From: a virus
Virus record (IMG/VR): IMGVR_UViG_3300045988_182799
Length of the DNA stretch: 64,000 nt
Strand: one strand, 5' to 3'
Of the stretch, positions 1 to 54,149 are shown piece after piece. The notes under the pieces were generated by a model. The model ran no database searches, had not been told where the DNA came from, and worked only from the letters and a program-made list of their open reading frames with translations. The translations under genes and the position numbers were made by a program. The first letter of the stretch is position 1; each line of letters begins with the position of its first letter.

Positions 1-134
1 TTGTCCAAGCGGCGCGGACAAGGCATTCGTCTTCGTGGTCATAGTTAAGGAGTTCCGCGCAAATGACCGTACTGCGAATCAACAACAGTACAATGCACGC
101 CCAGAGACAGCCGCAGGAAGCGGCATGTTGCTGG

Positions 135-210
135 TGGTGGAAATAGAGGGATTCGAACCCTCGACCCCCTGCTTGCAAAGCAGGTGCTCTCCCAGCTGAG
201 CTATATCCCC
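135..210 (-). tRNA. tRNA-Ala(UGC): tRNA-Ala (anticodon UGC)
   Basis: Reverse complement reads GGGGATATAGCTCAGCTGGGAGAGCACCTGCTTTGCAAGCAGGGGGTCGAGGGTTCGAATCCCTCTATTTCCACCA. It has a 7-bp acceptor stem, GTTCGAATC T-loop, anticodon loop TTTGCAA and an encoded CCA. Confidence 0.85.
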
Positions 211-240
211 ATGATGGCGGGGCATCCCCGCCGGACAGTT

Positions 241-633
241 TTAGGTGTACTGGAAGTCGCCGTACTGCTTGACCTCGCGCTCCAGGTGGAGCGGAATGGT
301 CTTGGTGCTTCGCTGCGTGATGTCGCTACGTGCCACCAGAGTCTCGCTTACGCCTGCCGCCTGAAGAACTTCAAACAGATTGGAAGGGCCTGTACCAGCA
401 TAGCCCGCCGTCAGTCCGTTGACACGCATTGTAAACCCATGCAGATGCGGTGCCAGGCCAGAAATGAAATCGAGTTCAACAATGACCTCGTCACTCTTAT
501 CGTTCACACGTTTGACTGAGATAGCACGGATGTTCTGGCTCCCGAAGGTCTCAATCAGTTTCTTGGCTGCCGCTGCGGTTTCAATCGTGGATGTACCTTC
601 TACATTGATAATTGCCTGCTCCATTGGAATCAT
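241..633 (-). CDS. hypothetical protein (130 aa) between tRNA-Ala and tRNA-Thr
   Basis: Intact ORF with a strong RBS (GAAAGGAGAT) immediately upstream of the ATG. No recognisable motif. Confidence 0.55.
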   Translation of the reverse strand: MIPMEQAIINVEGTSTIETAAAAKKLIETFGSQNIRAISVKRVNDKSDEVIVELDFISGLAPHLHGFTMRVNGLTAGYAGTGPSNLFEVLQAAGVSETLVARSDITQRSTKTIPLHLEREVKQYGDFQYT

Positions 634-825
634 CTCCTTTCTACTTCAAGTTGTCATGCACTGTGGCAGATAACGCTCTGCACTGCGAGGCTTTACGTTG
701 CCCATTCGTGTTCGGTTCCGGCTACGACGACTTCCGTAAGGACTTAGCCAACCGCCAACAGGTGCATGCCCCCGTTGGAAGCTTCTTGGGCGGATTCTCA
801 AAGAGCGCGTCGCCCAATCGGACCG

Positions 826-901
826 TGGAGCTTAGTGGCAGATTCGAACTGCCCGCCTGCACATTACGAGTGTGCCGCTCTGCCTAATGAGCTAACCAAG
901 C
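826..901 (-). tRNA. tRNA-Thr(CGU): tRNA-Thr (anticodon CGU)
   Basis: Reverse complement GCTTGGTTAGCTCATTAGGCAGAGCGGCACACTCGTAATGTGCAGGCGGGCAGTTCGAATCTGCCACTAAGCTCCA folds as a 76-nt cloverleaf with anticodon loop CTCGTAA. The acceptor stem has one G-U pair. Confidence 0.75.
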
Positions 902-1187
902 ATGGCAGGATGTTTTATGCTTGTTATCATCCCAAATCAGGGCAGCCAACCCTGCATCAAGCACCATCCGGCAGCCACGCCGATGGATTCTGTATTGTAC
1001 CCTCTCCGCCGTTTTCCGGTCTCATTCGCGACTGATACTGGGACTTTCGGATACTCTCAGGCACAGCACCTGTTTGCCGATTCTTTTAGAGGCTGTCCAT
1101 TGGCATTCGGACAGCGGACCACAAGTGGACCATGCTCGCTTTATTTAGTGTCGTGCGTACGGTGACAGCGACGGTGGAGCGGGCAGC

Positions 1188-1262
1188 GGGATTCATTTCT
1201 ATTCACGCCACCCATGTGGGCAGCGACAATTGCTATACCCCGCGTGGTGGGTCACGTCTGGC
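1188..1262 (-). pseudogene. decayed tRNA-like remnant
   Basis: Reverse complement begins CGCGGGGTATAGCAATTG, nearly identical to the 5' end of the tRNA-Met at 2870-2943, and ends ...GAATCCCGCTGCCCGCTCCA. It has acceptor-like termini and a T-loop-like GAATCC, but no foldable anticodon arm. Confidence 0.25.
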
Positions 1263-1279
1263 TTTCGCTTTTGCGGCCT

Positions 1280-1474
1280 TTATTTTGCTTCGCTGTTTAT
1301 GTACCCAAACCAGCAGCTTTCGCAGCCAGCGAACCCCGCGCACCCTTCCTCGTACACGTCATTCCATGGCGGACATCTGAAATTCTTTTCAAAGACTTTT
1401 ACCATGTTCTTTTTGATATCTTCCACGGGTCCGCTGAACTTCATTCCTTTTGTCAATTCTTCAAAAACCGTCAT
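1280..1474 (-). CDS. small hypothetical protein (64 aa)
   Basis: The AT-rich 5' half encodes a Lys-rich peptide (MTVFEELTKGMKFSGPVEDIKKNMVKVFEKNF...). An RBS (GGAAGGAAAG) precedes the ATG, and hairpin element 1 sits just upstream. The C-terminal third is GC-rich and may be read-through. Confidence 0.35.
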   Translation of the reverse strand: MTVFEELTKGMKFSGPVEDIKKNMVKVFEKNFRCPPWNDVYEEGCAGFAGCESCWFGYINSEAK

Positions 1475-1489
1475 TTTTCTTTCCTTCCT

Positions 1490-1514
1490 TCTCGCCGCGT
1501 GGAGGCTACCAGCG
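1490..1514. other. conserved hairpin-loop element, copy 1 (partial)
   Basis: Contains GCCGCGTGGAGGCTACCAGCG, a 15/16 match to the core shared by copies 2-6. The flanking stem is weak. Confidence 0.4.
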
Positions 1515-1523
1515 TAGGGATAT

Positions 1524-1598
1524 TGGAGGAGTATATCGGGGTCGAACCGACGTTATCTGCTTGGAGGGCAGAGGTATTAACCGTTATACGAATACTCC
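1524..1598 (-). tRNA. tRNA-Gly(UCC): tRNA-Gly (anticodon UCC)
   Basis: Reverse complement GGAGTATTCGTATAACGGTTAATACCTCTGCCCTCCAAGCAGATAACGTCGGTTCGACCCCGATATACTCCTCCA. Anticodon loop is CCTCCAA. Confidence 0.85.
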
Positions 1599-2366
1599 AC
1601 AAGATTGCGGGTGAACCCTCATTTAGCCCCGCCATGATGTTCGTTTAGGAGGTAGTCGGCCCCGAACGCCATCTTTACACCACTTGACAATCTTGCGAAT
1701 CTCATCGCTGACTATGCGTGAGAATCCAAGAAAGCGCTTAGGTGTTGGTCAACTTCAAATCTTAGAGCCCTACCGTTACTTCTCTGTCAATTCGGGCAAA
1801 CGGTTTTCGATGGGCTACGTGTGTAAGACTGCGGCTTACTTACCAGCTGCCGTGCAGCAGTCTCGCCTATACGGCTGTGTCGCGTCTGGCTGCGCCCCGG
1901 CTTTACGGGGATGCTCGTACGTCTGCATGCTTGATGGGGCGGGATTTGTTGTTTCCGAACCGTAGTTCGAGAGGAAGCACTCGTCCACACAACTTCCTGG
2001 CCTTTAGGGATACCGCTCACACCGGGAATTGTGATGCGATTCCCACGATTGAAGACTTCGCCATGTCGCGGGTATTGACCGCAACAATGTTGCCCACTGC
2101 TCACCACGAGGAGGTTGTCTTCTGAGCAGTAGCGCGGATTGTGTGGAGCAGTCCGCGCAAGCAGCTTCCGCGTATTCCCTGCTGCTTGAGGGAGCTTGTT
2201 GAGCGTCCGCCGACGCCGTACCCCGGAGGGAACGTCCAAAGGCGTTTTGCAGTACGGAAAAGTTCGGTTTAGAGCCATGAACTGGGCCAAGGACTGCTTA
2301 CCTTGTCTGGTTTGCCCTCCAGATTGGGTTGAGAGCATTCGTCAGCGACTGTAGTAATCGTTGTCC

Positions 2367-2400
2367 ACCACCCGCCGCGTGGAGGCTGTCTCATGGGTGG
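2367..2400. other. conserved hairpin-loop element, copy 2
   Basis: CCACCC-[GCCGCGTGGAGGCTGTCTCAT]-GGGTGG: a 6-bp stem enclosing the conserved 21-nt loop. Confidence 0.55.
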
Positions 2401-2523
2401 CTGGGCACGTCGGATGTTTCCGGCGTGCCCAGATAGGCGCTACCTATCGTGTCGTTCTAAGGCGGGAGCTGCCCGCCATCAGGTTTACCTGTGCATCGGA
2501 TTATCCCTTTCACTTATGCGGCC

Positions 2524-2624
2524 TGTCGGACGTAATTAGTGCATAGGCGTTCTCCTTTGTTCAGATTTTGACATCGGACGCGGTAATTACTGCATCGGAG
2601 TGCCCTCCCTGTTAGATTTCGACC
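2524..2624. repeat. two tandem degenerate ~50-nt repeats inside the ncRNA candidate
   Basis: Unit 1 is TGTCGGACGTAATTAGTGCATAGGCGTTCTCCTTTGTTCAGATTTTGACA. Unit 2 is CATCGGACGCGGTAATTACTGCATCGGAGTGCCCTCCCTGTTAGATTTCGACC. Aligned by eye at roughly 70% identity. Confidence 0.5.
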
Positions 2625-2758
2625 TGTTTAACGTCCGTGTCAGGACGTGTTCTGGATGGGTGGTGTCACACCACCGTGTTCCGTGCTTACGCGTCGCACC
2701 TGTACTCCACTATTACGCCTTATCGCGCGATTGACGTGTTCCCTTGTACTACACCCAG

Positions 2759-2835
2759 TGGCGACTCGTGCCGGACTCGAACCGGCGACCTCCAGCGTGA
2801 CAGGCTGGCGTTCTAACCATCTGAACTAACGAGCC
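2759..2835 (-). tRNA. tRNA-Asp(GUC): tRNA-Asp (anticodon GUC)
   Basis: Reverse complement GGCTCGTTAGTTCAGATGGTTAGAACGCCAGCCTGTCACGCTGGAGGTCGCCGGTTCGAGTCCGGCACGAGTCGCCA. Anticodon loop is CTGTCAC. Confidence 0.85.
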
Positions 2836-2869
2836 ATATATGACCGATTTAGCGTCGCGGCCGAGACGA

Positions 2870-2943
2870 TGGATACGGGGATGGGACTTGAACCCACAAC
2901 CACCAGCGTATGAGGCTGGTAAGCTACCATTGCTATACCCCGT
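2870..2943 (-). tRNA. tRNA-Met(CAU): tRNA-Met/Ile2 (anticodon CAU)
   Basis: Reverse complement ACGGGGTATAGCAATGGTAGCTTACCAGCCTCATACGCTGGTGGTTGTGGGTTCAAGTCCCATCCCCGTATCCA. Anticodon loop is CTCATAC. Initiator, elongator or lysidine-Ile identity cannot be decided by eye. Confidence 0.8.
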
Positions 2944-2992
2944 GTCAATAACAAGACATTGGCCGCAAGAACCTTCAAAACTTGCGTTGTCC

Positions 2993-3027
2993 ATCCCTCG
3001 CCACGCGGAGGCTGTCTTGTGAGGGAT
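2993..3027. other. conserved hairpin-loop element, copy 3
   Basis: ATCCCTC-[GCCACGCGGAGGCTGTCTTGT]-GAGGGAT: a 7-bp perfect stem with a 21-nt loop. Confidence 0.55.
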
Positions 3028-3204
3028 TCTCGGAGATTGCGCAAGGATGTGTAGAACTATACTGGTGTAGTATGATGTGCTGCAAGCAGCTACAATGCAC
3101 ATTCTCCGAGGTTGTTATTACCGTCTATCAAGTGAGGGTATGTAGCACTATAGTAGTTGTGATGTGTGTCGGGATGACACTTACAACACTTGATATTCGG
3201 TATA

Positions 3205-3280
3205 TGGCGGGTCGTACAGGGCTCGAACCTGTGACATCTTGATTAACAGTCAAGCGCTCTGCCGACTGAGCTAACGACCC
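3205..3280 (-). tRNA. tRNA-Asn(GUU): tRNA-Asn (anticodon GUU)
   Basis: Reverse complement GGGTCGTTAGCTCAGTCGGCAGAGCGCTTGACTGTTAATCAAGATGTCACAGGTTCGAGCCCTGTACGACCCGCCA. Anticodon loop is CTGTTAA. Confidence 0.85.
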
Positions 3281-3324
3281 AGAAATAAGACATTTGCCAC
3301 GGGGAGCTCAATACCCGTGTTACC

Positions 3325-3357
3325 GTCACCGCCGCGAGGAGGCTGTCTTATGGTGAC
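3325..3357. other. conserved hairpin-loop element, copy 4
   Basis: GTCACC-[GCCGCGAGGAGGCTGTCTTAT]-GGTGAC: a 6-bp perfect stem with a 21-nt loop. Confidence 0.55.
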
Positions 3358-3450
3358 ATAGCCCGCAAGATGTGTGTATAGCATCGTATCAAGAAGTTAC
3401 GATTCATCAAGCGGGATTTTGGATTTCAACGGAGGAACGATGAAAACCAA

Positions 3451-3526
3451 TGGAGCTTCCGGTGGGACTCGAACCCACAACCTACTGATTACAAGACAGT
3501 TGCTCCGCCTGTTGAGCCACAGAAGC
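3451..3526 (-). tRNA. tRNA-Thr(UGU): tRNA-Thr (anticodon UGU)
   Basis: Reverse complement GCTTCTGTGGCTCAACAGGCGGAGCAACTGTCTTGTAATCAGTAGGTTGTGGGTTCGAGTCCCACCGGAAGCTCCA. Anticodon loop is CTTGTAA; the anticodon stem has one non-WC pair at its base. Confidence 0.75.
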
Positions 3527-3571
3527 ATGGTAGTCGCAAGGAGTAAAACCTTGACGACTAATGTATTATTT

Positions 3572-3599
3572 AGTATATGCGGTTCGCACGATTCGGCAA
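3572..3599 (-). promoter_or_regulatory. sigma70-type promoter of the conserved-spacer family; likely drives the tRNA array
   Basis: Minus strand reads TTGCCG-aatCGTGCGAACCGca-TATACT, with a 16-nt spacer carrying the family core. It lies directly upstream of tRNA-Thr(UGU). Confidence 0.45.
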
Positions 3600-3621
3600 T
3601 ACAGATTATTTGAAGCACATT

Positions 3622-4308
3622 CTATATTTTGCGAATCTGCAAGTCACTGACATCTGCAATGTCTCGGTTTTCTTTCGTGACATCCTTTACCGCGCGTTTC
3701 TTTGACCAGAGAACACTCAGGACGCGATTGCGAAGGTTGTCGTCCTCGATAGTGGATGTCACTTTTACGATTTCTGACTCGCTCAAGTAGACTGTTCCAC
3801 CCTGCTGAATCATGGTCGGATACCCGTTATCACTTCTCAGGACCTTTTTATCAAGGCTATCGTAGGCGTATATCGCGTCGATAAGAAGTTCGGCCGCGAT
3901 TCCGTCCAGCTGTTCTTCCGTGATACCCTGGAAGACGAGCCAGCGGCGCATGAACGAGTCATCCGGGATACTGTCACTGTAAAGAGAGAACAGAGGAGAT
4001 ACCAGTTTGTTGCTCGAATAGCGCTCATGCTCTTCATCGACATTCAGGTTGTCCTGCCAAAGCTTCAGCATCAAGCCGTCGCCGTAGTAGACGAACGTGT
4101 CGTGAAAGAACCCGGACGAGCACACCTTGATATGGTCGATGTTCGCAACTTCCTCACGGTGGCAGAGTACAAAGCGCGTGCCTTCACTCTTGCCGTAGGT
4201 CTCATCGTCCCACTTGACCGTGACCCGTTCCAGCACAAACCTGTCGTTGAGGAGCTTCAGAACTGCTTTGATGGGAAATACTCGCCAGTCCATCAGATGT
4301 TTCTCCAT
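3622..4308 (-). CDS. hypothetical protein (228 aa), last gene of the AAA/zinc-ribbon/nuclease operon
   Basis: Intact ORF overlapping the upstream gene by 16 nt. No recognised motif. Confidence 0.55.
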   Translation of the reverse strand: MEKHLMDWRVFPIKAVLKLLNDRFVLERVTVKWDDETYGKSEGTRFVLCHREEVANIDHIKVCSSGFFHDTFVYYGDGLMLKLWQDNLNVDEEHERYSSNKLVSPLFSLYSDSIPDDSFMRRWLVFQGITEEQLDGIAAELLIDAIYAYDSLDKKVLRSDNGYPTMIQQGGTVYLSESEIVKVTSTIEDDNLRNRVLSVLWSKKRAVKDVTKENRDIADVSDLQIRKI

Positions 4309-4736
4309 TCCTTTGCTATCGGGTCGTACTCGGCCACTTCTTTTTTCGTAACCTTACCGTCCTTTTTATACAGCGTGACGCGCTGGATATAGTTGGCGGC
4401 ATTGGTATCAAGTCGGCGCATGGCTTCGGCAGAAGAGCTCGTCGTAGTGAGACTACGATAAGTCCCGCCGGAGCCCATGACGTCAGGCTCATAGTACCCA
4501 GTCTCGTAGTAGACTGCTATATCCTGTTCGTTAGGAGAAGCGGCATCCAGGATGACCTTGGAGCTTTCCTTGTTGCTACCCGCATAGGAGTTGCGGATGA
4601 TGCGAGCACCACGGTCATTCCCCTGCTGTTCATAGGCTTCGGCAATGAACTCAACGTAGGTCTTGAACTTCTGCTCGTCGCCGTCTCGATGTGCTTCAAT
4701 GAGCTTTCCGAGTGTAACTACGCCAACCACATTCAT
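4293..4736 (-). CDS. hypothetical protein (147 aa)
   Basis: Intact ORF in the operon. No recognised motif. Confidence 0.55.
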   Translation of the reverse strand: MNVVGVVTLGKLIEAHRDGDEQKFKTYVEFIAEAYEQQGNDRGARIIRNSYAGSNKESSKVILDAASPNEQDIAVYYETGYYEPDVMGSGGTYRSLTTTSSSAEAMRRLDTNAANYIQRVTLYKKDGKVTKKEVAEYDPIAKEWRNI

Positions 4737-7873: not shown

Positions 7874-8394
7874 TGTTCCTTCGCCGCCTTCTTTGTTTTC
7901 TTTCTTCCCCTTTTACGGTGGATTCCAGCTTTGTGCATGATGTCGTATCCACATGTGGTACAGAAACCATACTCCTTAGCAAGTGCCTGAATTGACTTCT
8001 GCGGGTTCTCTCTGACTGCTTGGATATACCGTTCCTCTCTTTTCAGGCGTTCTTTCTTTGCCTTTGTCATCACATCAGAATCCCGCTGGCAGGTATATTT
8101 CGGGTCTACCTGCTTGATGACGCTATAAATCGTTGCGCGGTTCATGTTGTATTCTTTCGCCAGCTCAACGGCCGTTACACCCTTGCTGTACTTGCGAGCG
8201 ATTTCTTTGTCTCGTTGTTTCTTCCATTTGTGGAAGTCCATAGAGCGTTCGTTACGACTCTCTTCACGAGATACTCTATAGCAGATATGGGTTGATACAT
8301 GATGCTTTGCGGCTGCGTCTTTGATAGACATACCACTCTTCAAGTCCTCGACAATGAGTCGGTTTCTTTCTGACATAGCTTCTTTGTCAATCAA
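7870..8394 (-). CDS. DNA-binding protein with three helix-turn-helix-like segments
   Basis: Repeated segments (SIKDAAAKHHVS..., VTAVELAKEYNMNRATIYSVIKQ, SIQALAKEYGFCTTCGY) resemble sigma70 region-4 / Mor-type HTH. First gene of the operon, behind promoter a. Confidence 0.6.
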   Translation of the reverse strand: MIDKEAMSERNRLIVEDLKSGMSIKDAAAKHHVSTHICYRVSREESRNERSMDFHKWKKQRDKEIARKYSKGVTAVELAKEYNMNRATIYSVIKQVDPKYTCQRDSDVMTKAKKERLKREERYIQAVRENPQKSIQALAKEYGFCTTCGYDIMHKAGIHRKRGRKKTKKAAKEQ

Positions 8395-8530: not shown

Positions 8531-9024
8531 TTATTTCCATTCCATATATGGAATATGTGCCAGCATAAGCAAACACACTTCAAGATTTGATTCGATGTAA
8601 CGAGCAATTGTATCGAATCGTTGATTCAGACTCAATGACTCAAAAGTGTAGCCGGATTCAGAGAGAATCATTTCCTCGCTGCTGGTATACATAACATTGA
8701 GCATCGCCGTCAATGCTTGCAGGATTTCCGTATCGCAGTCCTTCTTTGTGAAGAAGAAATATCGTGTTGAGTTCCCATCGGTGATGCCGATTTTGCCTTC
8801 ATAGCCATCAAAACTTGCAAGGTCGCCGAATAGGCTGCAAGCAATATAGCCAAGCTTTTCTTCAACCGGCACAGTGACCCACAAAGGATAACGCTCGTTT
8901 GGCTGAAAATCAGCCTTGCCACAGTTATACTCCCACTCAATGAAAGCACGAATACTGATAACTTCTCCGTACGGCGTAATGAATTTGACGTTTTCCAATT
9001 TACTCACCTCGCTTGTGCGCCACA
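8531..9024 (-). CDS. hypothetical protein; probable start at internal ATG ~9024 (possibly leaderless)
   Basis: The track ORF 8531-9175 overlaps the upstream gene by 74 nt, and its first 50 codons run through promoter b. An ATG lies ~7 nt downstream of the TACAAT -10 with no SD, consistent with a leaderless mRNA. Confidence 0.45.
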
Positions 9025-9030
9025 TGATTT

Positions 9031-9058
9031 TATTGTATTCAATTCGCAATGAAAAGCA
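9031..9058 (-). promoter_or_regulatory. promoter b of the conserved-spacer family
   Basis: Minus strand TTGCTT-ttcATTGCGAATTGaa-TACAAT. Confidence 0.5.
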
Positions 9059-9101
9059 AAAAGAGGGGCCGCCTGGCGGCAGCCCCTCGAATGCAGTGCG
9101 A

Positions 9102-9635: not shown

Positions 9636-11069
9636 TTACATCGTCGGACTTTGCGGCAGCCACTGCTGCGGATAAGAACGAAGCAGATTCTTCGGCACAC
9701 AATCATTCAGTGCAGAGTTCTCAGCAAGTGCCATGTCGATGATGTAGTAATCATCACCGTTGCGCATCACATCAACACTCCACTGCCCTGTCAGCTCTAC
9801 GTGCGGGATAACCTTCTTCAGCTCATCCAGAACAATCTGGACACTCTCCTTGTAGCGCTTTTCCAGCACATCCTCGTGCATCTGGTAGATAACGTAGTCG
9901 TGCCGTTCCTGCGGACTGCTCACTTCCTGGAATTTGCCCTTCATCACATCGCTGCGCCAGTAAGGACTCACTCCGAGAATTGTCTTGGCATCGAAGTCCA
10001 CAAACACGCGGTATTCAGTGTGCAGCGGCAGACCGTTATAGATAGTCGGGTTTCCTTCCTTGTCTTTGATATACTCTCTGACAACCCATTCATTGGTCGT
10101 ATTTGCCCCATAGAAGCAATGTCCATTGGTGGGCGCTGCCATAGAACAGGTCAGGTGGTTCAGAAACAAGAAATACTCGCCTATCTCACGGACCTCTTGC
10201 GGTTCCTGGACATGAGCATTGCGAAACTCGTACTTGGAAGAGTAGGTGCCGGTTTTGATAAAGTAGTCGCCGTCATCGTTCAGATGGAAGATTCTCTTGC
10301 AGTAACGGTTCACAATCGCCTTCGTCACGGGATTCAGCGTCTCAAAGCCGAGTCTCGTGAGTTGGAGCATCGTGATGGGCACATGTAGGAGTTTCGTCTC
10401 CGGCACCTTGAAGAACTTATTACCGTCTAAGCCTTTAACCAACGGCGGCAGCCAGTAGCTCATGGTGTTCGGATTCATTTCGAGCATCTGATATGTGATG
10501 TCATCGAGGTCCAGAATATCGAGGCCCTGGCGGAACATGTGATACTGCATCGCCTTGTTTCGGTCATTTCTCGCATCGAGATACGCCTTGTAGTGGCTGA
10601 GCAGCACCTTGTAAGATGGCTCAGAAATGTCAATCTTCATCAGATTGCCGGTCAGCTGCGGCCGAAGTTCTTCCGGGAACTTCTTGAGGTCCTCATTCGT
10701 AACCGGCGGAAGGATATGCTGGTTAGTAGAATACCGCACGTAATATCCACCACGCTCCGGCTCATAGATGTACATTCTGGTGCCATCCATCAGCTCGGCA
10801 ACAATTTGGTCAATGAGATTGTCCAGCTCTTTCGTAAAAGGCACGCTCTTATCGAGCATTGCCTTTACGGTTGCGGTATCCCACTGGAGAAGATTGTCAG
10901 ACAGTGTCCCACTTTCCAGCACTTGGGTTTTGTAGACATCCTCAAAGGTTTTAAGAGCATCAGGGCTTGTTTTCAGCATCGATGCAAGCTCTTCATAGGA
11001 AAACGGCTCATTTTCTTTCTTAGATAGCATTGCACCGATTTGAGCAAGCATGTCATTGAACTGAGCCAT
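9636..11069 (-). CDS. hypothetical protein (477 aa), possibly with a C-terminal ATP-grasp-like fold
   Basis: The C-terminal region (...FIKTGTYSSKYEF...EYRVFVDFDAKTILGVSPYW...) resembles the ATP-grasp strand pattern. Weak, by-eye only. Confidence 0.55.
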   Translation of the reverse strand: MAQFNDMLAQIGAMLSKKENEPFSYEELASMLKTSPDALKTFEDVYKTQVLESGTLSDNLLQWDTATVKAMLDKSVPFTKELDNLIDQIVAELMDGTRMYIYEPERGGYYVRYSTNQHILPPVTNEDLKKFPEELRPQLTGNLMKIDISEPSYKVLLSHYKAYLDARNDRNKAMQYHMFRQGLDILDLDDITYQMLEMNPNTMSYWLPPLVKGLDGNKFFKVPETKLLHVPITMLQLTRLGFETLNPVTKAIVNRYCKRIFHLNDDGDYFIKTGTYSSKYEFRNAHVQEPQEVREIGEYFLFLNHLTCSMAAPTNGHCFYGANTTNEWVVREYIKDKEGNPTIYNGLPLHTEYRVFVDFDAKTILGVSPYWRSDVMKGKFQEVSSPQERHDYVIYQMHEDVLEKRYKESVQIVLDELKKVIPHVELTGQWSVDVMRNGDDYYIIDMALAENSALNDCVPKNLLRSYPQQWLPQSPTM

Positions 11070-21012: not shown

Positions 21013-22020
21013 TTACATGACACGTCGCAGATAGGACTTGTTGATTTCTACCAGCAACTCCTCAACCTTCCCAAAGTCCGGCTTGGTCGGGAGCATAGTT
21101 TCCTTCACATCTCGCTGGAATCTTGATTCGAGCCGGTCAACAAGCTCAAAGAATTCGGGAGCGTATGCCCCATCTTGGTACATGTATTTACCGTTGCGGA
21201 TAGCAAGCAGTTCCTCGCGTTCCTTGTCCCGGCGGGCGATGATGTGTCCTTGCTCCAGAATGTCAAAGGCCGTGTAGTATAGCCGTACAAGGTGCATTGC
21301 ATGTTTATTGATGTGGGCAGCATCTTTTTGCGCTTTCGGATGCTGCGGCTGTTCATACTGGTCGATAGTCGTTGTCAGACCTCGAAGCAGGGACTTGAGA
21401 GAGTTGACAGGATAGTTACTCAGATTTCCAGAAATCAAGAGAGGATGTTTGCCTTCAGAATCGACATCTTTACTGATGCTGATTTCAAAGACATCATCTT
21501 TACCCTGACCTGCAATAAGTCGTTCGAGGCTTCTCTTTTCAAACTTGTTTTTGAGCGGCTCAGGAGAAGCGCCATTCCGCAGTAGTCCCATCTGCAAGCG
21601 TCTGAGCTGGTCGTTCGCAAAGCCACCATAGCTGTATGCAATGCGCCGGGTCAGGAAAAGTTCCTTGTTATCCAGCAGCATCTGTCCTTCTGGAGTCATG
21701 TTCACATACAGCTTCGGGTCGTTGCCAAGAAGCTCAATGACATTAGGGTTACATTGGACAAGCAGGTTGACAAATTTATTGATGGCGTAGATGACGGTAT
21801 CCGTCTGATTATTGATGACTTGCTCAAAGCGATTAAACCCCAAGATTTCAGGCGAACCAGCCGCACCACGGATGTCAACATCTGAACCCTCAACATTCGT
21901 ACCATAGGCGTGGCTGCCGCCGATAGTCAAAAACAGGATGTTATCTCCCAGATGCTTGTTGGTGCGTAAAAAATCATATTCTTCACGCTGGAGAATCGCT
22001 TTCAATTCTGCGTTTGTCAT
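21013..22020 (-). CDS. pol-beta-superfamily nucleotidyltransferase (335 aa)
   Basis: Canonical NTase motif LFLTIGGSHAYGTNVEGSDVDIRG (GS-x9-13-DxD) with a helical C-terminal domain. Substrate cannot be assigned by eye. Confidence 0.75.
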   Translation of the reverse strand: MTNAELKAILQREEYDFLRTNKHLGDNILFLTIGGSHAYGTNVEGSDVDIRGAAGSPEILGFNRFEQVINNQTDTVIYAINKFVNLLVQCNPNVIELLGNDPKLYVNMTPEGQMLLDNKELFLTRRIAYSYGGFANDQLRRLQMGLLRNGASPEPLKNKFEKRSLERLIAGQGKDDVFEISISKDVDSEGKHPLLISGNLSNYPVNSLKSLLRGLTTTIDQYEQPQHPKAQKDAAHINKHAMHLVRLYYTAFDILEQGHIIARRDKEREELLAIRNGKYMYQDGAYAPEFFELVDRLESRFQRDVKETMLPTKPDFGKVEELLVEINKSYLRRVM

Positions 22021-37270: not shown

Positions 37271-37771
37271 TCACAGTGCAGCCAGATAGTGAATCGCCAT
37301 CTTTGCAAACCCGATAGCAGATACAAAGCACCATCCTGCTTTTCCAGCCCAGATAACCTTTGTATAGATGGGTAATACCTTTCGGACCGGCTCCAATTTC
37401 CCGAATGCAAGAGGAATTGCGGATACCATCAGCAGCGAAATGTCAAACGCTAAACAAACAAACACAGTTAAACAGTAGTTCAGCATGAGTTGAGCTTCGA
37501 CCTTATTGACTTCAATTAAGCGCAAAGCCAACAAAGCAAATGCCGTTGAAATCACACAGCTAATGACAAGGATTCGTACCGTATGGTTCAGAGTATCCTC
37601 GGGTGATAGGTATTTTCTTTTGCCGCAGCAATAGGTTACTTCTTGGAAGGCTTTACGCCCAAAATACAAGTTATAAACACCATTTACTGCGAAAAGGATA
37701 GCTGTTATGGAGAACAGCGCCACTCTGCAAATAGCAACGATACCCATAGGAATCAAAAGGAGAACTTGCAC
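37271..37771 (-). CDS. polytopic membrane protein (166 aa, ~5 TM)
   Basis: Hydrophobic profile. The downstream small ORF 37096-37260 is a possible coupled peptide. Confidence 0.55.
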   Translation of the reverse strand: MQVLLLIPMGIVAICRVALFSITAILFAVNGVYNLYFGRKAFQEVTYCCGKRKYLSPEDTLNHTVRILVISCVISTAFALLALRLIEVNKVEAQLMLNYCLTVFVCLAFDISLLMVSAIPLAFGKLEPVRKVLPIYTKVIWAGKAGWCFVSAIGFAKMAIHYLAAL

Positions 37772-38640
37772 TCACGGCGCTCGCGGCCATTGCCGCACCA
37801 ATAGTGCCGCCAGGTGGGAGCCTTACCGTTCGCTTCCTTCTTGTAACGCTCCATCAGATAATGGCCCACCACAAAGGTCTTGATATTGACTTTCTTGGTC
37901 TGGCCCTTGAACGTAAAGACAGGACGTTCGTCCTTTTTCGGGCTGTCCAGACGAATCTCCGCGCCTTTGCTGGCAAGGTAGTAGGCACACAGCATTGCGA
38001 GACGGACATAGGGCGTGCCTTCGCCGTAAACAGACGGGATAGCGTCCAGCGTTTCAGGAATAGTGATGTCATCTTTATCGCGGGTCGAAGATGCCTTTTC
38101 AATGTACTGTTTCGTGCTGCGAGTCGCCTCCGTCAAGCTCTGACCCTCCTTAATCCAAGCGGGAAGGGACAGGAACGCGAAGTTCTCCTTCTCGTTCTGG
38201 ACGGGGCCGACAAGGACGATGCCAACGAAGGTGTCATCCGTCTTTGTATCGAACTCGATATGCACGAACATGCCGCAGTAGTCCACGCTGTTGTACAGAG
38301 GCACATAGAAGTTCTTGAACGGCAGGCGCTCCAGCACCTCGCGATGGAGGGTGAGGTCATCGGTATCCATCAGCAGTTCCAGAAAATCCTTGCCGAAATC
38401 GTAGATGACCTTGGTCTGATTCCAGTTGGCGATGGTGTAGCACGGGAAAATCTGGGCAGCCAGCACCTTTTCAAAGCCAGGCTGCTGCATCTGCTGGGCA
38501 ACACGCAGGCACTGAAGCGTAGCGCCCTTGGTGAATTCGTCCAGCGTCTTGCCGCAGGGGTCCTCAAAATCGAAGCCGGTACGGGTCGAGCGAGTAACGG
38601 CATTGGCGGTGAGTGCGATACGAACCTGTTCAGAAGTCAT
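37753..38640 (-). CDS. hypothetical protein (295 aa)
   Basis: Intact ORF with strong RBS ATTTTGGAGGATATTT. Confidence 0.6.
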   Translation of the reverse strand: MTSEQVRIALTANAVTRSTRTGFDFEDPCGKTLDEFTKGATLQCLRVAQQMQQPGFEKVLAAQIFPCYTIANWNQTKVIYDFGKDFLELLMDTDDLTLHREVLERLPFKNFYVPLYNSVDYCGMFVHIEFDTKTDDTFVGIVLVGPVQNEKENFAFLSLPAWIKEGQSLTEATRSTKQYIEKASSTRDKDDITIPETLDAIPSVYGEGTPYVRLAMLCAYYLASKGAEIRLDSPKKDERPVFTFKGQTKKVNIKTFVVGHYLMERYKKEANGKAPTWRHYWCGNGRERRECKFSF

Positions 38641-38724
38641 AAATATCCTCCAAAATATGTTATTTGTTTTCGGCTTCCCGATGGTTTGTTAGAAAGCAAA
38701 GTTGTCTGCCAGCCGTAGCTGTTG

Positions 38725-38772
38725 CCCGCTGCCCGCCTCGTGGAGGCCCCTTTGCATAAAGGCAGCTGCGGG
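38725..38772. other. conserved hairpin-loop element, copy 5 (variant)
   Basis: CCCGCTGCC-[CGCCTCGTGGAGGCCCCTTTGCATAAA]-GGCAGCTGCGGG. Lies immediately 3' of the stop of the 38784-39380 gene. Confidence 0.45.
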
Positions 38773-38783
38773 GAGAACCCCGC

Positions 38784-39380
38784 TCAAGATTTGATGTTTA
38801 GGCGTCTATTGATTTCTTTTACGCCGAGTTTCCGAGATGTAAATACAGGCTTTACCTCTTGCCCGTGCTGTTTCACAAACCGTTCGAGCACTGTCCATGA
38901 CGGCTCGCTTCCATCCTCAAAGGAATACGGGTCAAGGTTCAGAAAGAGCCAGGTCTTGGTGTGTTCCCTGCCGGCCAGATAGTGAATGAGTGATGCCGTA
39001 ATGGCAAGAACCCCCTTATGCCATGTGTAGGTCATAGTTCGGCTCACATCATGGACAATAAGTTGGGGCTGCTTTCCCATCGCCATATCGACTTCGATGG
39101 TATGCGCCACAACGGGCTTATCGTCCGTAATCTTATATTGATGCAGAATCATCGGAATGCGGCCCGGAACGATACGGTCATGGTCCAGTACAAAGTCCGC
39201 GTACTCCCCTGTCACATCAAAGACAATGATTCGGTCTGAGATGGTACGCAGCGTCTTGGCAATCTGACGCTTACACCAGAACGTCTTCCCTACCCCTTCA
39301 TTGGCAGATACGAGAGTATAGTAGCTGGTTTCAATGATATTAGGTTCTATCCGTTTCATTCCTTGATGTACTCCTCGCAA
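38784..39380 (-). CDS. small P-loop NTPase (198 aa)
   Basis: Walker A SANEGVGKTF and Walker B RIIVFDVTGE. Confidence 0.6.
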   Translation of the reverse strand: MRGVHQGMKRIEPNIIETSYYTLVSANEGVGKTFWCKRQIAKTLRTISDRIIVFDVTGEYADFVLDHDRIVPGRIPMILHQYKITDDKPVVAHTIEVDMAMGKQPQLIVHDVSRTMTYTWHKGVLAITASLIHYLAGREHTKTWLFLNLDPYSFEDGSEPSWTVLERFVKQHGQEVKPVFTSRKLGVKEINRRLNIKS

Positions 39381-40806: not shown

Positions 40807-41199
40807 TCACCATCCTCCACGAGATAAGCGAACCCACTCTGTCCTTGTCCCGCTGTAATACGGAGTATGAGTATACGCTTCGTAGGCCCATTTGCGCTCT
40901 TGCTTTTCCCTCAATGCTTGCTCCTCCTTCAGTTCCTTGACTGTGGCGATGAGCTTGTTTTCTTTGCCTTCCGCTTCACCTTTGGCAAAAGCGGCTTTTT
41001 GGGCTTCGTCAATACGCTGGTATCTGTTCTTTCGTTCTTTCTCGATATAGAGTAGTCCATTGGCTACTGCATCGAGAAATGCTTGTGTCTCAAAGGCAGA
41101 AATAGGTTCTTTTCCATCCTTATCTTTGGATACACAGAAAAAGCCGTTTTCGTCATAGCAGATGAAATAGGGAGAGTTTGGGACCTGTTGTGTTTTCAT
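40807..41199 (-). CDS. hypothetical protein (130 aa)
   Basis: Intact ORF. The downstream ORF 40547-40891 probably starts at the internal MMGSIP (~40800). Confidence 0.45.
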   Translation of the reverse strand: MKTQQVPNSPYFICYDENGFFCVSKDKDGKEPISAFETQAFLDAVANGLLYIEKERKNRYQRIDEAQKAAFAKGEAEGKENKLIATVKELKEEQALREKQERKWAYEAYTHTPYYSGTRTEWVRLSRGGW

Positions 41200-41259
41200 G
41201 GCTTTCTCCCCTTCTTTTTCGTTCTGAAGACTATTTGCCAGGAGCCTTTCCCGTTGCCC

Positions 41260-41296
41260 GCCGCTTGCCCCGTGGAGGCTGTCTTCGTTGAGCGGC
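41260..41296. other. conserved hairpin-loop element, copy 6
   Basis: GCCGCT-[TGCCCCGTGGAGGCTGTCTTCGTTG]-AGCGGC. Lies immediately 3' of the flotillin gene stop, followed by a second small hairpin GCAGCCC-TCAAT-GGGCTGC. Confidence 0.5.
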
Positions 41297-41330: not shown

Positions 41331-43022
41331 TTATTTGTTGGGGCCCGTCTTCTTTTTATACGGATTGGTTTTGTTGGTGGTAGCATGCTTCTCAGCTGCC
41401 TTGGCGTGAGCATCCATGATGGCCTTTTCCTCGTCCGTAAAATCGGGACGGAAAGAAGTTTTATCTTCGCCGGTGATAGGGTCTTTCTCATGGAACATCC
41501 AACCATCTTCGACACGCTCGGAGGTGATGTGAGATTTTGGCTCGTCCAACTCCACACCATCGATATGGATGTTGCGGTCCGTCTTAGCCTGGATGCTATT
41601 GGCACGAACAATCTCACCCATGTCGATACCGGTTGCCTCCTTCACCGTCTGCATGGTCTGGGCCATGAGCACCGGGACGTTACCAGACACACCGGATACG
41701 CCGGAAGCATCACCACCGATGATAGACACCTTGTCGATGCTGGACAGGGGCTGGGCCACGCTCTTGGCGATGTCAGGCAGAACCTTGATAAGCATTTCGG
41801 CAACAGCTGCGTCGTTGTACTGTTTGTAGGCTTCGGCTTTCTGTTTCATAGCCTCTGCCTCAGCCAGACCTTTCTGGCGAATGGCTTCAGCCTCAGCCTT
41901 ACCGACCATCTCGATGCCTTCTGCTTCCTGCTGCTTAGCGAACTTTTGTGCTTCGGCTGCACGCTCCGCCTCGTATTTTTTGGCTTCTGCTTCTTTCTGA
42001 CGGCGATAAAGGTCTGCATCAGCCTGTTTACGGACTTCTGCGTCCAGTTTACGCTGCTGGACTTCGGCTTCCTGCGCAGCAAGGTCAACCATCTTCTTCT
42101 GCTTGGCAATCTCTGCGTCAGCCTCAGCTTCTTTGATTTCCTTGGCACGGAGGTTCATCTGGATACGACCGGCGGCATCCGCATCGGCCGCCGCCTTGTC
42201 AGCTTCCGCCTTCAGCTTTGCCTTGGCGAGCTGCAACTCGTTGTTGCGCTGTGCGATAGCGGTCTGAGCTTCGACTTCCTTGGCATTTGCAGCCATCTCA
42301 GCATCTGCTTTGGCGCAAGCCACGTCACGGGCCGCCTGGGCACGAGCAATCTCAGCCTGCTTCTTCACCAGTTCTTCCTGCTCGATACCGATAGCTTCGA
42401 TGACACCGTGATTGTGGCCCTGTGCATCAATCGCGTCCCTAATGTCTTGAACATTGAAGGTCACGACCTCAAGGCCCATCTTGGCGAGGTCTGGACGAGC
42501 GTTCTCAATGACGCTCAGTGCCATCTGCTTGCGGTTTGTCAGAATCTGGTCAACGGTCATGTCGGAGACAATCTCACGCAGGTTGCCCTGCAGAACGTCA
42601 TTGACCTTGTCGTTGATGCCCTGCTCATTCATACCAAGGAAGTTCGAGATAGCTGCCTGCTGGCGGGACATGACATACGCCTTGGCGTCCTTCAGACCAG
42701 ATGCTTTGACCTCATCGTCCAACACAGTGGAGTTCTCACTGTAAACCTGAATCGTTACGACAGAATCAATCCAGAGCGACACGCCATTCTGAGTCTTAAC
42801 GCCTGTTTCAGGGGTCTTGACATCGATTTTCAGCAGCCGCATGTTCAGCTTGTCTGCTCGTTGCAAGACAGGAAGCACAAACGTGCCTTTACCGGATACT
42901 ACTTTAGGCTTTGACAACCCAAAACCGGTCACGACGATAGCCTCCGTCGGAGGGGCCTTCTTGTAGCACAGAAAGCCGAAGATGATAATAAGGACTGCTA
43001 CAATCCCGATGATAAGCGCCAT
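41331..43022 (-). CDS. flotillin / SPFH (band-7) family protein
   Basis: N-terminal TM (ALIIGIVAVLIIIFGFL), SPFH core, long Ala/Glu/Lys-rich coiled coil (AEAQKFAKQQEAEG...) and a C-terminal flotillin-like tail. Confidence 0.8.
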   Translation of the reverse strand: MALIIGIVAVLIIIFGFLCYKKAPPTEAIVVTGFGLSKPKVVSGKGTFVLPVLQRADKLNMRLLKIDVKTPETGVKTQNGVSLWIDSVVTIQVYSENSTVLDDEVKASGLKDAKAYVMSRQQAAISNFLGMNEQGINDKVNDVLQGNLREIVSDMTVDQILTNRKQMALSVIENARPDLAKMGLEVVTFNVQDIRDAIDAQGHNHGVIEAIGIEQEELVKKQAEIARAQAARDVACAKADAEMAANAKEVEAQTAIAQRNNELQLAKAKLKAEADKAAADADAAGRIQMNLRAKEIKEAEADAEIAKQKKMVDLAAQEAEVQQRKLDAEVRKQADADLYRRQKEAEAKKYEAERAAEAQKFAKQQEAEGIEMVGKAEAEAIRQKGLAEAEAMKQKAEAYKQYNDAAVAEMLIKVLPDIAKSVAQPLSSIDKVSIIGGDASGVSGVSGNVPVLMAQTMQTVKEATGIDMGEIVRANSIQAKTDRNIHIDGVELDEPKSHITSERVEDGWMFHEKDPITGEDKTSFRPDFTDEEKAIMDAHAKAAEKHATTNKTNPYKKKTGPNK

Positions 43023-43266
43023 ATACATACTCCTTTCGCTCATCACAACCAATGCCTGTCTTTTGTGCAGGCGCGAATACAAACAAAAAAGCTGCGGAAG
43101 CAAAAGCAACCACAGCCTTTTATATGAACCACCGGCCCAGGAAAAAGCCGATGGGGTGAATACAAGCGGAAAGCAAACATGTCAAAGTGAGAGGAAACCA
43201 CGTCGTACACACCGGCAGGAAGAGGTTAAGACCCGCCGGAACCCAATTCCGCTTGTACAATTCTAA

Positions 43267-52521: not shown

Positions 52522-53364
52522 TTAGAGATAGTTAGATGGCTTAATGACGGATACTCCGTATGGAGATGTATCAATGTCGAGGTATGTGCAGCCGGAGTTG
52601 GGTCTATCCATCCGAGTGATTTCTTTATGAGGGATGTGTCCAAAAATATAGAGCGTATCCCGATGACCGGTCAGCATTTCGTCTTTATCATAATCAAAGA
52701 CTCGACCGAACGGATTGTTGTGTGTCACTACGACTTGTTTGAATCGAGAGCCAGGCGGAGGTGTGATGTTGAGTTCCTGTGCCTGATTCTCGAAGATAAC
52801 TTCAAAGTTCTCTCTCGTCTTTTTCGTACCAGACAGGTACTCGTAGATGGTATGCTCTGCTTCATACGGTGTGCCACACATATTGTCGAGCAAGTATACG
52901 ACCATCTGCCAAAGCCCATCATTCTCCCACGCGAGAGTATAAGTGATGAAGAGCTTCTGCCACCCGGCGAATGTATGAGGTCTTGCGGCGAGAATCTTCT
53001 TTCTTTCCTCCATGCTGCATCTGAGCGTTTCGAGTTCTTCTTTTGTTCTGAAGATGTGCTCTCCTTGCTTGTAGTGTAGGAAGACCCAGGCTGCGAGCTT
53101 TCTGACGGTCGGAGACTGTGCGAGTGCTTTATAGTATCGAAGCATCTGCCTATGTTCGTATTCGTGGTTGCCAAGAACGAGATGGACTGTATCTGGATGT
53201 TCCGCAATGAAGTTGACGACCTTTGCGTTTTCCTTGCCACGGTCTACTACATCACCAACGAAGACGAGCTTGTCGGTTCCTTCATTCCATCCGGCGGCCA
53301 TGAGGGATTCGATGAGACCTTTGTAGTTCCCATGCACATCTCCTGCCACATAGATGTCGCTCAT
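52522..53364 (-). CDS. calcineurin-like metallophosphoesterase (PPP-type phosphatase fold)
   Basis: Motifs GDVHG, GDVVDRG, GNHE and a later HG/GH pair. The start overlaps the upstream gene (ATGA). Confidence 0.75.
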   Translation of the reverse strand: MSDIYVAGDVHGNYKGLIESLMAAGWNEGTDKLVFVGDVVDRGKENAKVVNFIAEHPDTVHLVLGNHEYEHRQMLRYYKALAQSPTVRKLAAWVFLHYKQGEHIFRTKEELETLRCSMEERKKILAARPHTFAGWQKLFITYTLAWENDGLWQMVVYLLDNMCGTPYEAEHTIYEYLSGTKKTRENFEVIFENQAQELNITPPPGSRFKQVVVTHNNPFGRVFDYDKDEMLTGHRDTLYIFGHIPHKEITRMDRPNSGCTYLDIDTSPYGVSVIKPSNYL

Positions 53365-54149
53365 TGGTTATCACCTTCTTTCCCAAAGTCGTCCGTGTTT
53401 ATTTCCGCAATCTGGTTGTACAGCACTCTGAGCTTGTACATCGGTTTATCGATGTCTTGGTGCATGTGGCCGCAACACCATTGTTTAAACTTCACCCGGC
53501 GGTAAATTTCATCAAGGTATACGCCAGTCGGGTCGTGAATCGGGCTGATGTCTCTGAAATAGATTGGCATGAGCATCTGTGGAAGCATGTGCGTCAGGAT
53601 GATGTCTACTTTATTCCCATGCTCATCCAATGCGTCAAGACCGTGCCACATCTCTTTCTGAGATGGGACTTCTTCCCTCCACCAAGTGACGCCTTCTGTA
53701 CGGTATGCTTTATCGATAGACTCTGCACCTCCCATACACCATACAGTTATACCATCAATCGTGTAGTATTCGCCGCGCATCAGGTGGATGACATTCGGTG
53801 CTTCCGGCAGGCGTTGAATCAAGCCGCCGTTCCACCGTTCAGTAGGCTGCTCTGCCCAGAAGGTGTGGTTATCGTGGTTACCATCAATGAAGAGGATATT
53901 GCAAGGAAAAGACTTCATCCAGTCGGTGTACATCTGGTACGCTCGCGCTGACTTGATACAGTGTTGCGGCATGTCCAGTGTCTTGAGGTCGTCCGCCGGA
54001 ATGCGGTCTGTTGGAAAGAACGGAAATCCGAAGTCTCCACAAACAACAATTACATCCTCCTTTGTGAGGTTGCGGTCAAGAAACCGTTTCGGATTGATTT
54101 TGGAAATCTCATCTGGTCCATGTGTATCGCCAAAAATATGAAGAAGCAT
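53361..54149 (-). CDS. second metallophosphoesterase
   Basis: Motifs GDTHG, GDFG, DGNHD and GHMH. Confidence 0.75.
   Translation of the reverse strand: MLLHIFGDTHGPDEISKINPKRFLDRNLTKEDVIVVCGDFGFPFFPTDRIPADDLKTLDMPQHCIKSARAYQMYTDWMKSFPCNILFIDGNHDNHTFWAEQPTERWNGGLIQRLPEAPNVIHLMRGEYYTIDGITVWCMGGAESIDKAYRTEGVTWWREEVPSQKEMWHGLDALDEHGNKVDIILTHMLPQMLMPIYFRDISPIHDPTGVYLDEIYRRVKFKQWCCGHMHQDIDKPMYKLRVLYNQIAEINTDDFGKEGDNQ

Follow-up and report, generated by a model that had tools for sequence, protein, structure and literature searches.

Transfer RNAs (tRNAs) punctuate polycistronic mitochondrial transcripts, the MALAT1/mascRNA 3′ end is formed by RNase P, and the tRNA cluster of phage T4 encodes stable non-tRNA RNAs. 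The 'bar' minigenes of phage lambda are two-codon open reading frames (ORFs) whose translation leads to peptidyl-tRNA drop-off. For minigenes, the mechanism has been described (PMC2490762). Theta ribozymes are minimal ribozymes of the hepatitis delta virus (HDV)-like type found beside phage tRNAs (Kienbeck et al. 2024, PMC10879173). By definition they cut within ±5 nucleotides (nt) of a tRNA 3′ end, and they have been proposed to trim the 3′ ends of phage tRNAs; ~40% of the known copies lie away from tRNAs, and the role of these copies was left open (PMC10879173). Here, we analyze positions 1599-2758 of a 64,000-nt stretch of viral DNA (IMG/VR record IMGVR_UViG_3300045988_182799; this whole stretch is hereafter called the window), a gap between two tRNA genes that holds two predicted HDV-like ribozymes away from tRNAs.

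An initial annotation, made from the letters alone, had proposed that this ORF-free and hairpin-dense segment was a single large structured non-coding RNA (ncRNA), possibly of the ROOL or GOLLD class. Our analysis upholds most of what was observed and part of this reading, and leads to a different overall picture. Read on the minus strand, 1599-2758 is likely the non-tRNA part of a long phage operon with tRNAs and small RNAs. The two HDV-like ribozymes, RzC and RzD, together with the flanking tRNAs, probably cut the transcript of this part into three products, S3, RzC+S4 and RzD+S5.

Two predicted HDV-like ribozymes in the gap between tRNA-Asp and tRNA-Gly

ARAGORN and Rfam place seven tRNA genes across 135-3526 of the window, all on the minus strand, as are the protein genes adjoining the array. 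Region 1599-2758 is the exact gap between tRNA-Gly(UCC) (1524-1598) and tRNA-Asp(GUC) (2759-2835; CCA encoded, Rfam tRNA score 68.7 bits) with zero extra bases, so that the boundaries between tRNAs given in the initial annotation were right. We take the minus strand as the RNA strand because the seven tRNAs and the six HDV-like matches all lie on it and because the supported helices are rich in G·U pairs of that strand; the window tRNAs, ribozymes, modules, minigene units, promoter-like sites and ORFs located below are on the minus strand. In the direction of transcription, the order is tRNA-Asp, 357 nt, ribozyme, 196 nt, ribozyme, 457 nt and tRNA-Gly. For comparison, 205 related loci were drawn from IMG/VR by two neighboring proteins and one DNA pattern (single loci are cited by number, such as L011), and over 200 related gut-phage contigs conserve the gap, at 72-98% identity (blastn, element maps).

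Rfam scans at the gathering score on the whole window returned tRNAs only, and scans at E≤10, which covered 900-3600, 1-3600 and 1599-2048, between them added only HDV-like matches and noise. The permissive E-value scan gave four sub-threshold, full-length matches to RF02682 (HDV-F-prausnitzii), all on the minus strand. RzD (2051-2130; match 2049-2130, 40.6 bits, E 2e-5) has every element intact: a P1 of seven base pairs (bp) (ACUGCUC/GAGCAGU), P2 (GAAGAC/GUCUUC), P3 (ACC/GGU), the loop L3 (UCCUCGU), whose CC faces the GG of J1/4, an 8-bp P4, and GGCGAA with the catalytic C. Its predicted cut lies between 2131 and 2130. RzC (2329-2401; match 2335-2401, 33.7 bits) reached E-values of 8e-4 to 1e-3 in local scans of 2.7-3.6 kb and 0.019 in a whole-window scan. 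It has P1 GCCACCC/GGGUGGU with a G1·U pair at the cleavage site, P2 UGAGA/UCUCA, P3 GCC/GGC, GG in J1/4 and the catalytic C within GACGAA, and is predicted to cut between 2402 and 2401. In L011, the positional counterpart of RzC reaches 45.2 bits and so passes the RF02682 gathering score of 44. Both RzD and RzC show the nested double pseudoknot of the HDV-like fold (P1, P1.1, P2, P3 and P4), with the catalytic cytosine at the start of J4/2 (GGC-GAA in RzD, GAC-GAA in RzC).

We parsed 17 diverse ribozyme copies from the window and the related contigs, among which P1, P2 and P3 stay paired despite differing sequences. P1, a 7-bp helix with at least ten different sequences, is complete in 14/17; a single mismatch occurs in two copies, and two mismatches occur in L029+9004. 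P2 occurs as AAGACA/UGUCUU, GCAAAG/CUUUGC, GAAGAUG/CAUCUUC, GCAAACA/UGUUUGU and GAGAAA/UUUCUU, and P3 alternates between GCC/GGC and ACC/GGU. L3 (UCCNCGN) is invariant, and the GG of J1/4 is kept in 15/17. The catalytic C (GGC-NAA or GAC-GAA) was found in 15/17 parses; in L011+14794 and L029+9004, where the automatic P2 assignment shortened the middle segment, the full sequences carry GGCUAA. From these modeled folds, we infer that RzC and RzD would be self-cleaving.

The one conserved hairpin element noticed in the initial annotation is the P3/L3/P1 core (CCUCCNCGYGG) of these ribozymes, found twice inside the segment, at four further positions, and in a relic. Two of the four are HDV-like ribozymes at 2952-3027 (RF02682, 41.5 bits) and 3286-3357 (29 bits). 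The other two were matched in the whole-window scan in gaps between protein genes, at 41225-41296 (43.0 bits; between 40807-41199 and 41331-43109) and 38696-38766 (34.3 bits; between 37753-38640 and 38784-39380), and with these intergenic copies the phage may also cut its messenger RNAs by ribozymes. The degenerate relic (1475-1523) lies directly 3′ of tRNA-Gly, with the core CCUCCACGCGG present and P1 paired at 5/7 positions; where its 3′ half would be, there is now the ribosome-binding site of a 64-amino-acid (aa) ORF (1280-1474). At the relic position, 0 nt after tRNA-Gly, L029 has a much better kept theta-type ribozyme (9004-9085 of that locus) with P1 paired at 5/7 positions, P3, the P4 hairpin and the GGCUAA core. 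A degenerate ribozyme copy also lies inside the L020 homologue.

Ribozymes behind non-tRNA RNAs and the modular architecture of the locus

Most of these ribozymes do not adjoin a tRNA: among 185 unique ribozyme contexts, 28 are within 5 nt of a tRNA 3′ end and 111 at 61-500 nt past the last tRNA. For 63 unique non-tRNA-adjacent ribozymes, the upstream 45 nt fold at a mean of -12.6 kcal/mol, compared with -8.3 kcal/mol at random positions, and a helix ends no more than 4 nt from the cut in 87% of them, compared with 58% at random positions. Because of these stabler upstream folds and the helix ends at the cut, the ribozymes look like 3′-end makers for the preceding RNA. The same arrangement is seen in the window, where the last hairpin of S3 (2402-2431) terminates at the RzC cleavage site and the 3′ hairpin of S4 at that of RzD.

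The relatives differ by whole elements. The S4+RzD cassette is missing from L017, the layout of L029 and L070 is limited to tRNA-Thr, 68 nt, a ribozyme, 330 nt and tRNA-Gly, and the first module of L011 is larger than that of the window. The breakpoints between relatives coincide with element borders, and the gap length ranges from 473 to 1360 nt. The unit of gain and loss among relatives is a cassette of RNA plus ribozyme. Elsewhere in the window array, the ribozymes at 3286-3357 and 2952-3027 stand just 5′ of tRNA-Asn and tRNA-Met and are preceded by hairpin-ended non-tRNA segments of 93 nt (3358-3450) and 177 nt (3028-3204), respectively; their surroundings follow the same cassette logic as 1599-2758.

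Promoter-like sites occupy 3619-3647 and 3572-3599; intrinsic terminators of the minus strand were not predicted anywhere in 1-4400. The operon is probably transcribed from the sites near 3572-3647 as a single primary transcript. For the cleavages and the ends that they would leave, we infer the following scheme. The tRNAs would serve as cut points for host RNase P at their 5′ ends and for 3′ end-processing enzymes at their 3′ ends, and the HDV-like ribozymes would sever themselves at their own 5′ ends. Processing of the tRNA-Asp 3′ end would set the 5′ end of S3 (357 nt), whose 3′ end RzC would make as a 2′,3′-cyclic phosphate right after the conserved hairpin. The RzC+S4 product of ~271 nt would carry a 5′-OH and a cyclic-phosphate 3′ end made by RzD. 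The RzD+S5 product (~532 nt) would receive its 3′ end from RNase P cutting at the tRNA-Gly 5′ end. Since a 5′-OH and a 2′,3′-cyclic phosphate are the ends joined by RtcB-type ligases, a circular RzC+S4 RNA of 271 nt is possible.

Non-coding nature of the gap

Region 1599-2758 is non-coding. The longest stop-free frame, of 183 aa (1787-2338), runs across RzD. Its translations from the window and L011 align over aa 112-175 only, though the S4/RzD part has ~90% nucleotide identity, and this part of L011 is read in a different frame from that of the window. Indels of 1-2 nt are frequent in the alignments of the relatives, none of which showed an intact protein gene here. With this and the sub-threshold Rfam matches above, the refuting outcome named in the initial annotation did not arise. 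The segment is thus ORF-free in substance, as first described. A small protein in M5b, the conserved part of S5, was also considered and rejected, since its 30-aa and 17-aa frames are disrupted by 1-nt indels in other clades in the alignments.

A conserved RNA ending at tRNA-Gly

Module S5 is a ~450-nt ncRNA (1599-2050) that reaches from RzD to the first base of tRNA-Gly and is recognized by alignment and covariation. Its 3′ 334 nt, termed M5b (1599-1932; core 3′ domain ~1599-1795), was found by nhmmer as one copy in each of the 205 loci, always ending at the first base of tRNA-Gly; ARAGORN called this tRNA in 199 of the 205 loci, each time directly after the M5b homologue. The truncated forms in L013 and L025 contain only the tRNA-proximal ~200 nt. 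From an alignment of 46 unique M5b homologues, RNAalifold predicted 83 pairs. On this structure, pairing holds in 99.2% of cells, and 18 pairs are changed on both sides, compared with 2-6 in slid controls. The covariation score of 0.232 stands against 0.04-0.08 in the slid controls and 0.150 in shuffles, none of which (0/500) reach it. The covariation check in relatives that the initial annotation had called for thus came out well above controls, here as in the 3′ part of S3. The helices with the best support are found at ~1634-1745. The 5′ third of M5b (~1820-1930) is almost invariant, including its loops, next to a tRNA-Gly that differs between clades, which points to strong constraint on its sequence.

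Rfam gave no match at E≤10 with S5 alone (1599-2048). As identities for M5b, we considered RNase P RNA, signal recognition particle (SRP) RNA, 6S RNA, T-box and transfer-messenger RNA (tmRNA) and set them aside, since none fits by its conserved motifs and none came from Rfam. ARAGORN found no tmRNA, and the only tmRNA-type hit of the scans at E≤10 was a chance match at 91-162 over tRNA-Ala. By eye, the 5′ end of M5b has a short likeness to the 3′ region of tmRNA. With less confidence than for the cutting itself, we suggest that the S5 core, either as an independent structured RNA or as a functional leader, may be released in a manner coupled to tRNA-Gly maturation.

S3 carries three minigene-like units

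Module S3 (2402-2758) appears as a 357-nt ncRNA from its minimum-free-energy z-score, homologue alignment and covariation. Its 5′ domain (~2649-2758) is followed by one hairpin, by three minigene-like units and, on the 3′ side, by three further hairpins. The folding energy of S3 has a z-score of -3.0, and none of 100 shuffles folds as well. The 41 unique homologues of S3 fall into three clades that are 65-72% identical. In the 3′ hairpins, pairing is kept at 94%, and both partners have changed in nine pairs (slid controls, 0-2); the terminal hairpin alone shows such double changes in 5/10 pairs.

The three tandem units of ~50 nt (2485-2623), located by regular expression and alignment, each comprise a Shine-Dalgarno (SD)-like site (GGGAGG, AAGGAG or AAGGGA), 7-9 nt, AUG, one or two sense codons and a stop, the composition of lambda bar-type minigenes. 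The mini-ORFs are AUG CAG UAA (2595-2587), AUG CAC UAA (2544-2536) and AUG CAC AGG UAA (2496-2485). The first two units (~2623-2573 and ~2572-2522) are identical at 38 of 51 bases, with an alignment score of 17 versus -7.8 ± 3.7 for shuffled sequences (~6.7 standard deviations), and a third, weaker unit comes after them. The 2×50-nt tandem repeat of the initial annotation is therefore real, if diverged, and corresponds to these units; it was missed by TRF and by an ungapped repeat finder, and direct alignment was needed. The minigene pattern is kept in the 41 unique homologues in every clade, with variants such as AUG CAG AAG UAA (an exact 3-nt insertion), AUG AUG UAA and AUG UAC UGA (a stop-codon switch). 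Only eight SD-AUG-N(1-2)-stop motifs occur in the 128 kb of the window (both strands), three of which are the S3 units, and loci without S3 carry no minigene triplet. In unit 3, AUG-N-stop is conserved and the local hairpin is not, which favors a translation-related constraint.

With less confidence and by analogy, S3 may engage ribosomes via its three minigenes, either like lambda 'bar', where tRNA is tied up as peptidyl-tRNA, or as a ribosome-bound stabilizer of the RNA. The arrays lack tRNA-His and tRNA-Arg, and the minigene codons therefore have no simple link with the phage tRNAs. A CsrA-type sponge with GGA loops was rejected for S3, in which the GGA motifs lie outside hairpin loops. An antisense regulator was likewise rejected, because a comparison of S1-S5 with the window by blastn-short gave no complementary stretch above 13 nt.

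We also noted other features of S3. Unit 1 (2575-2600) has two alleles, AUG CAG UAA followed by UUACCGCG and AUG CAG AAG UAA followed by UUCUCG, and both are found in each of three otherwise divergent clades, suggesting recombination or repeated switching. The first 110 nt of S3 (2649-2758), right after the CCA of tRNA-Asp, are cloverleaf-like with a 7-bp closing stem, CUGGGUG/CAUCCAG, which by eye is UUGGGUG/CACCCAA or CUGGAUG/CAUCCAG in relatives, a compensatory pattern. The S3 homologue of L011 contains at 8270-8360 a ~90-nt element, also in L017, L018 and L028 and absent from the window, with an acceptor-like 7-bp stem (UCUGGUG/CACCAGA), a hairpin like a long variable arm and a T-arm-like hairpin (AUGGUUCGACCCCAU); this element drew no tRNA call from ARAGORN or Rfam.

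S4 between the ribozymes

Module S4 (2131-2328), a ~200-nt ncRNA between RzC and RzD, was delimited by presence or absence in blastn and by locus maps. It occurs in four lineages only and is absent from many relatives. The 3′-most 90 nt do not vary, and compensatory changes in L005 preserve some hairpins, which lends modest support to a structured S4.

Weighing of the alternative explanations

As a tentative extension, which we regard as possible rather than likely, the phage group would express undescribed ncRNAs via this punctuated operon: the ribozymes and tRNAs would set their ends, the S3 minigenes would manipulate host translation or tRNA pools, and S5/M5b would represent a new class of RNA of ~200-330 nt tied to tRNA-Gly(UCC). 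A rival reading assigns S5, and perhaps S3, the role of cis-acting leaders or trailers for the folding, processing or stability of neighboring tRNAs, with the ribozymes merely insulating folding units. M5b always adjoins tRNA-Gly(UCC), its truncated forms retain the tRNA-proximal part, and S3 starts immediately behind the CCA of a tRNA (tRNA-Asp, in some relatives tRNA-Met), all of which would suit such a role. On the other hand, a tRNA leader of 330-450 nt would be very long, and from clade to clade tRNA-Gly diverges strongly whereas the distal part of M5b hardly varies. We consider a purely cis-acting role unlikely; it overlaps with the punctuated operon that we favor, and sequence alone does not separate the two. 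About equally unlikely is a decaying spacer, the remnant of tRNA-plus-ribozyme cassettes in which only the ribozymes and tRNAs matter. A ribozyme relic adjoins the segment and a degenerate copy lies in L020, cassettes come and go, and S4 and S5 are no stabler than shuffles, all of which speak for it. A neutral spacer, however, is not expected to stay paired in 99% of cells, to be present once in all 205 loci with an almost invariant 5′ third and compensatory changes in its 3′ part, as M5b is, or to preserve the hairpins and minigene units of S3 across the divergent clades.

The single large ornate RNA of the ROOL/GOLLD type suggested at the outset is very improbable for the whole 1.16 kb. Phages and prophages do encode ROOL and GOLLD, frequently close to tRNA islands (PMC12286853), and the segment is conserved and, as the initial annotation had it, non-coding and structured. 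But Rfam 15 produced no match to ROOL, GOLLD, OLE, HEARO, raiA, group I/II introns or ribosomal RNA, either at the gathering score or at E≤10 in scans of 2.7 kb and 450 nt, which also speaks against the degenerate intron or ribosomal RNA fragment proposed as a fallback; what Rfam brought up instead were the sub-threshold matches to HDV-like ribozymes, which had not been on the list. Two predicted self-cleaving ribozymes lie inside the supposed single RNA, its sub-segments are deleted, swapped, gained and lost independently in relatives, and nearly all predicted helices fall within modules: the S3 and S4 folds are self-contained, and the sole long-range helix (5 bp) closes M5b. Least plausible of all is a protein-coding region, a recent pseudogene or a set of DNA-level sites such as iterons or operators. 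The 183-aa stop-free frame is on the gene strand and there is an imperfect palindrome at 2574-2599, yet the frame is unconserved and crosses a ribozyme, small indels are frequent, and the G·U pairs of the covarying helices are strand-specific, as they would be C·A mismatches on the other strand.

Some observations count against the punctuated operon itself. RzD and RzC both score under the RF02682 gathering score; RzC has one A·C mismatch in P4 and a one-base bulge in P2, and RzD opens with A-U and not the usual G·U. The perfect helices with which the segment was first said to be packed are borne out by folding energy in S3, but not in S4 (z = -1.0) or S5 (z = -0.15), neither of which is significant; for S5, the evidence of structure comes from covariation and not from energy, and the helices of the M5b 5′ third, being almost invariant, are not assessable by covariation. 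In the predicted fold, part of the SD and AUG of unit 1 is base-paired, so that the AUG may be a structural coincidence. The diversity is that of about five clades of one phage group, by which some of our counts are inflated through relatedness. Finally, no peptidyl-tRNA hydrolase (Pth), RtcB or CCA-adding enzyme was seen among the ~50 window ORFs scanned.

Phage context and neighboring genes

The window, one section of a large phage genome, encodes terminase-like and tail-like proteins, a helicase, a Mor-type regulator and a sortase. The nearest protein matches are uncultured human-faecal phages, and distant ones are phages of Streptococcus, Bacillus and Enterococcus. These distant matches, together with the sortase gene, make a Bacillota host likely. 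Thus, of the Firmicutes prophage context proposed initially, the phage nature stands (IMG/VR homologues, terminase- and tail-like proteins) and the host phylum is likely, but the prophage found no support: an exact search of 185,579 GTDB representative genomes with 44 nt taken from the invariant 5′ part of S5 (M5b) gave 0 matches. Among GenBank phages, blastn of 1-4000 matched tRNAs only, and an exact-pattern scan of IMG/VR for a wider family returned the same phage group only, with unchanged diversity.

Two small ORFs between tRNAs of the array, 241-633 (130 aa) and 1280-1474 (64 aa), have no Pfam family; the 130-aa protein is found at 77-100% identity in at least 144 IMG/VR stretches. In 65 loci (L029, L058, L070 and L080 among them, at 10424-10499), the ARAGORN call in the place occupied by tRNA-Ala(UGC) in other clades is a tRNA whose two-base anticodon 'ca' is undetermined, which may reflect an odd anticodon loop or a decaying tRNA. 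Farther away, the window encodes an RlaP-family nucleotidyltransferase of an RNA-repair pathway (PF10127, E 4.6e-18) at 21013-22020 and two adjacent metallophosphoesterases at 52522-53364 and 53361-54149. It is speculation that these are candidate healers of RNA ends such as ribozyme-made 2′,3′-cyclic phosphates.

Comparison with known systems

RzC and RzD appear by sequence to belong with the HDV-like/theta group. They share with theta ribozymes the HDV-like fold, the location in tRNA arrays of gut Caudoviricetes phages, the tRNA strand and a cut at their own 5′ end that makes the 3′ end of the upstream RNA, and the relatives L017 and L029 carry true tRNA-adjacent copies, 0 nt from a tRNA. 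In contrast to theta ribozymes, the cuts of RzC and RzD fall 357 and 628 nt after the tRNA-Asp 3′ end, behind non-tRNA RNAs, and ARAGORN and Rfam find no tRNA in between. Not being adjacent to a tRNA, they fall outside the theta definition. The copies here are also longer (73-82 nt with a longer P4 hairpin, versus ~56 nt for the tested theta ribozyme), and none from this locus are in the supplements of PMC10879173. Among Rfam families, compared alongside the HDV ribozyme (RF00094), RF02682 scores best, with alignments over model positions 1-74 and the shared core CCUCCNCGUGG, GGGCAAC and GGCNAA; the window copies reach only 29-43 bits, only the copy of a relative passes the gathering score, and the genomic setting differs. 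The locus with its more than 200 related contigs offers a testable answer, within one phage group, to the role of ribozymes that are not tRNA-adjacent: standing mostly behind conserved non-tRNA RNAs, after a terminal hairpin, they would serve as makers of ncRNA 3′ ends.

The likeness to GOLLD and ROOL is one of neighborhood only, as structured ncRNAs in phage tRNA islands (PMC12286853). They differ in showing no match in sequence or structure and in being a single RNA of 580-800 nt instead of several smaller modules separated by ribozymes. Closer in principle are the mitochondrial and MALAT1 transcripts, in which, as proposed here for S5 and tRNA-Gly, a downstream tRNA lets RNase P set the 3′ end of an ncRNA, and the T4 cluster, where non-tRNA RNAs are encoded together with phage tRNAs. 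No sequence relationship to these systems is expected, and self-cleaving ribozymes act here as an extra kind of punctuation in the proposed scheme. Neither the three-part layout delimited by ribozymes, nor M5b, nor the minigene array was found in Rfam or in the literature searched, which leaves two RNA elements without a database family, namely the covariation-supported RNA fused to tRNA-Gly and the triple-minigene array.

The putative minigene array resembles lambda 'bar' in having SD, AUG, one or two sense codons and a stop, three times in tandem. It differs from lambda 'bar' in that the S3 units would lie on a processed ncRNA within a tRNA operon and use codons for Gln, His, Arg, Lys, Met and Tyr. 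If these minigenes are translated, they would represent a natural and conserved use of minigenes by a phage inside a tRNA operon, with a bearing on how phages tune host translation.

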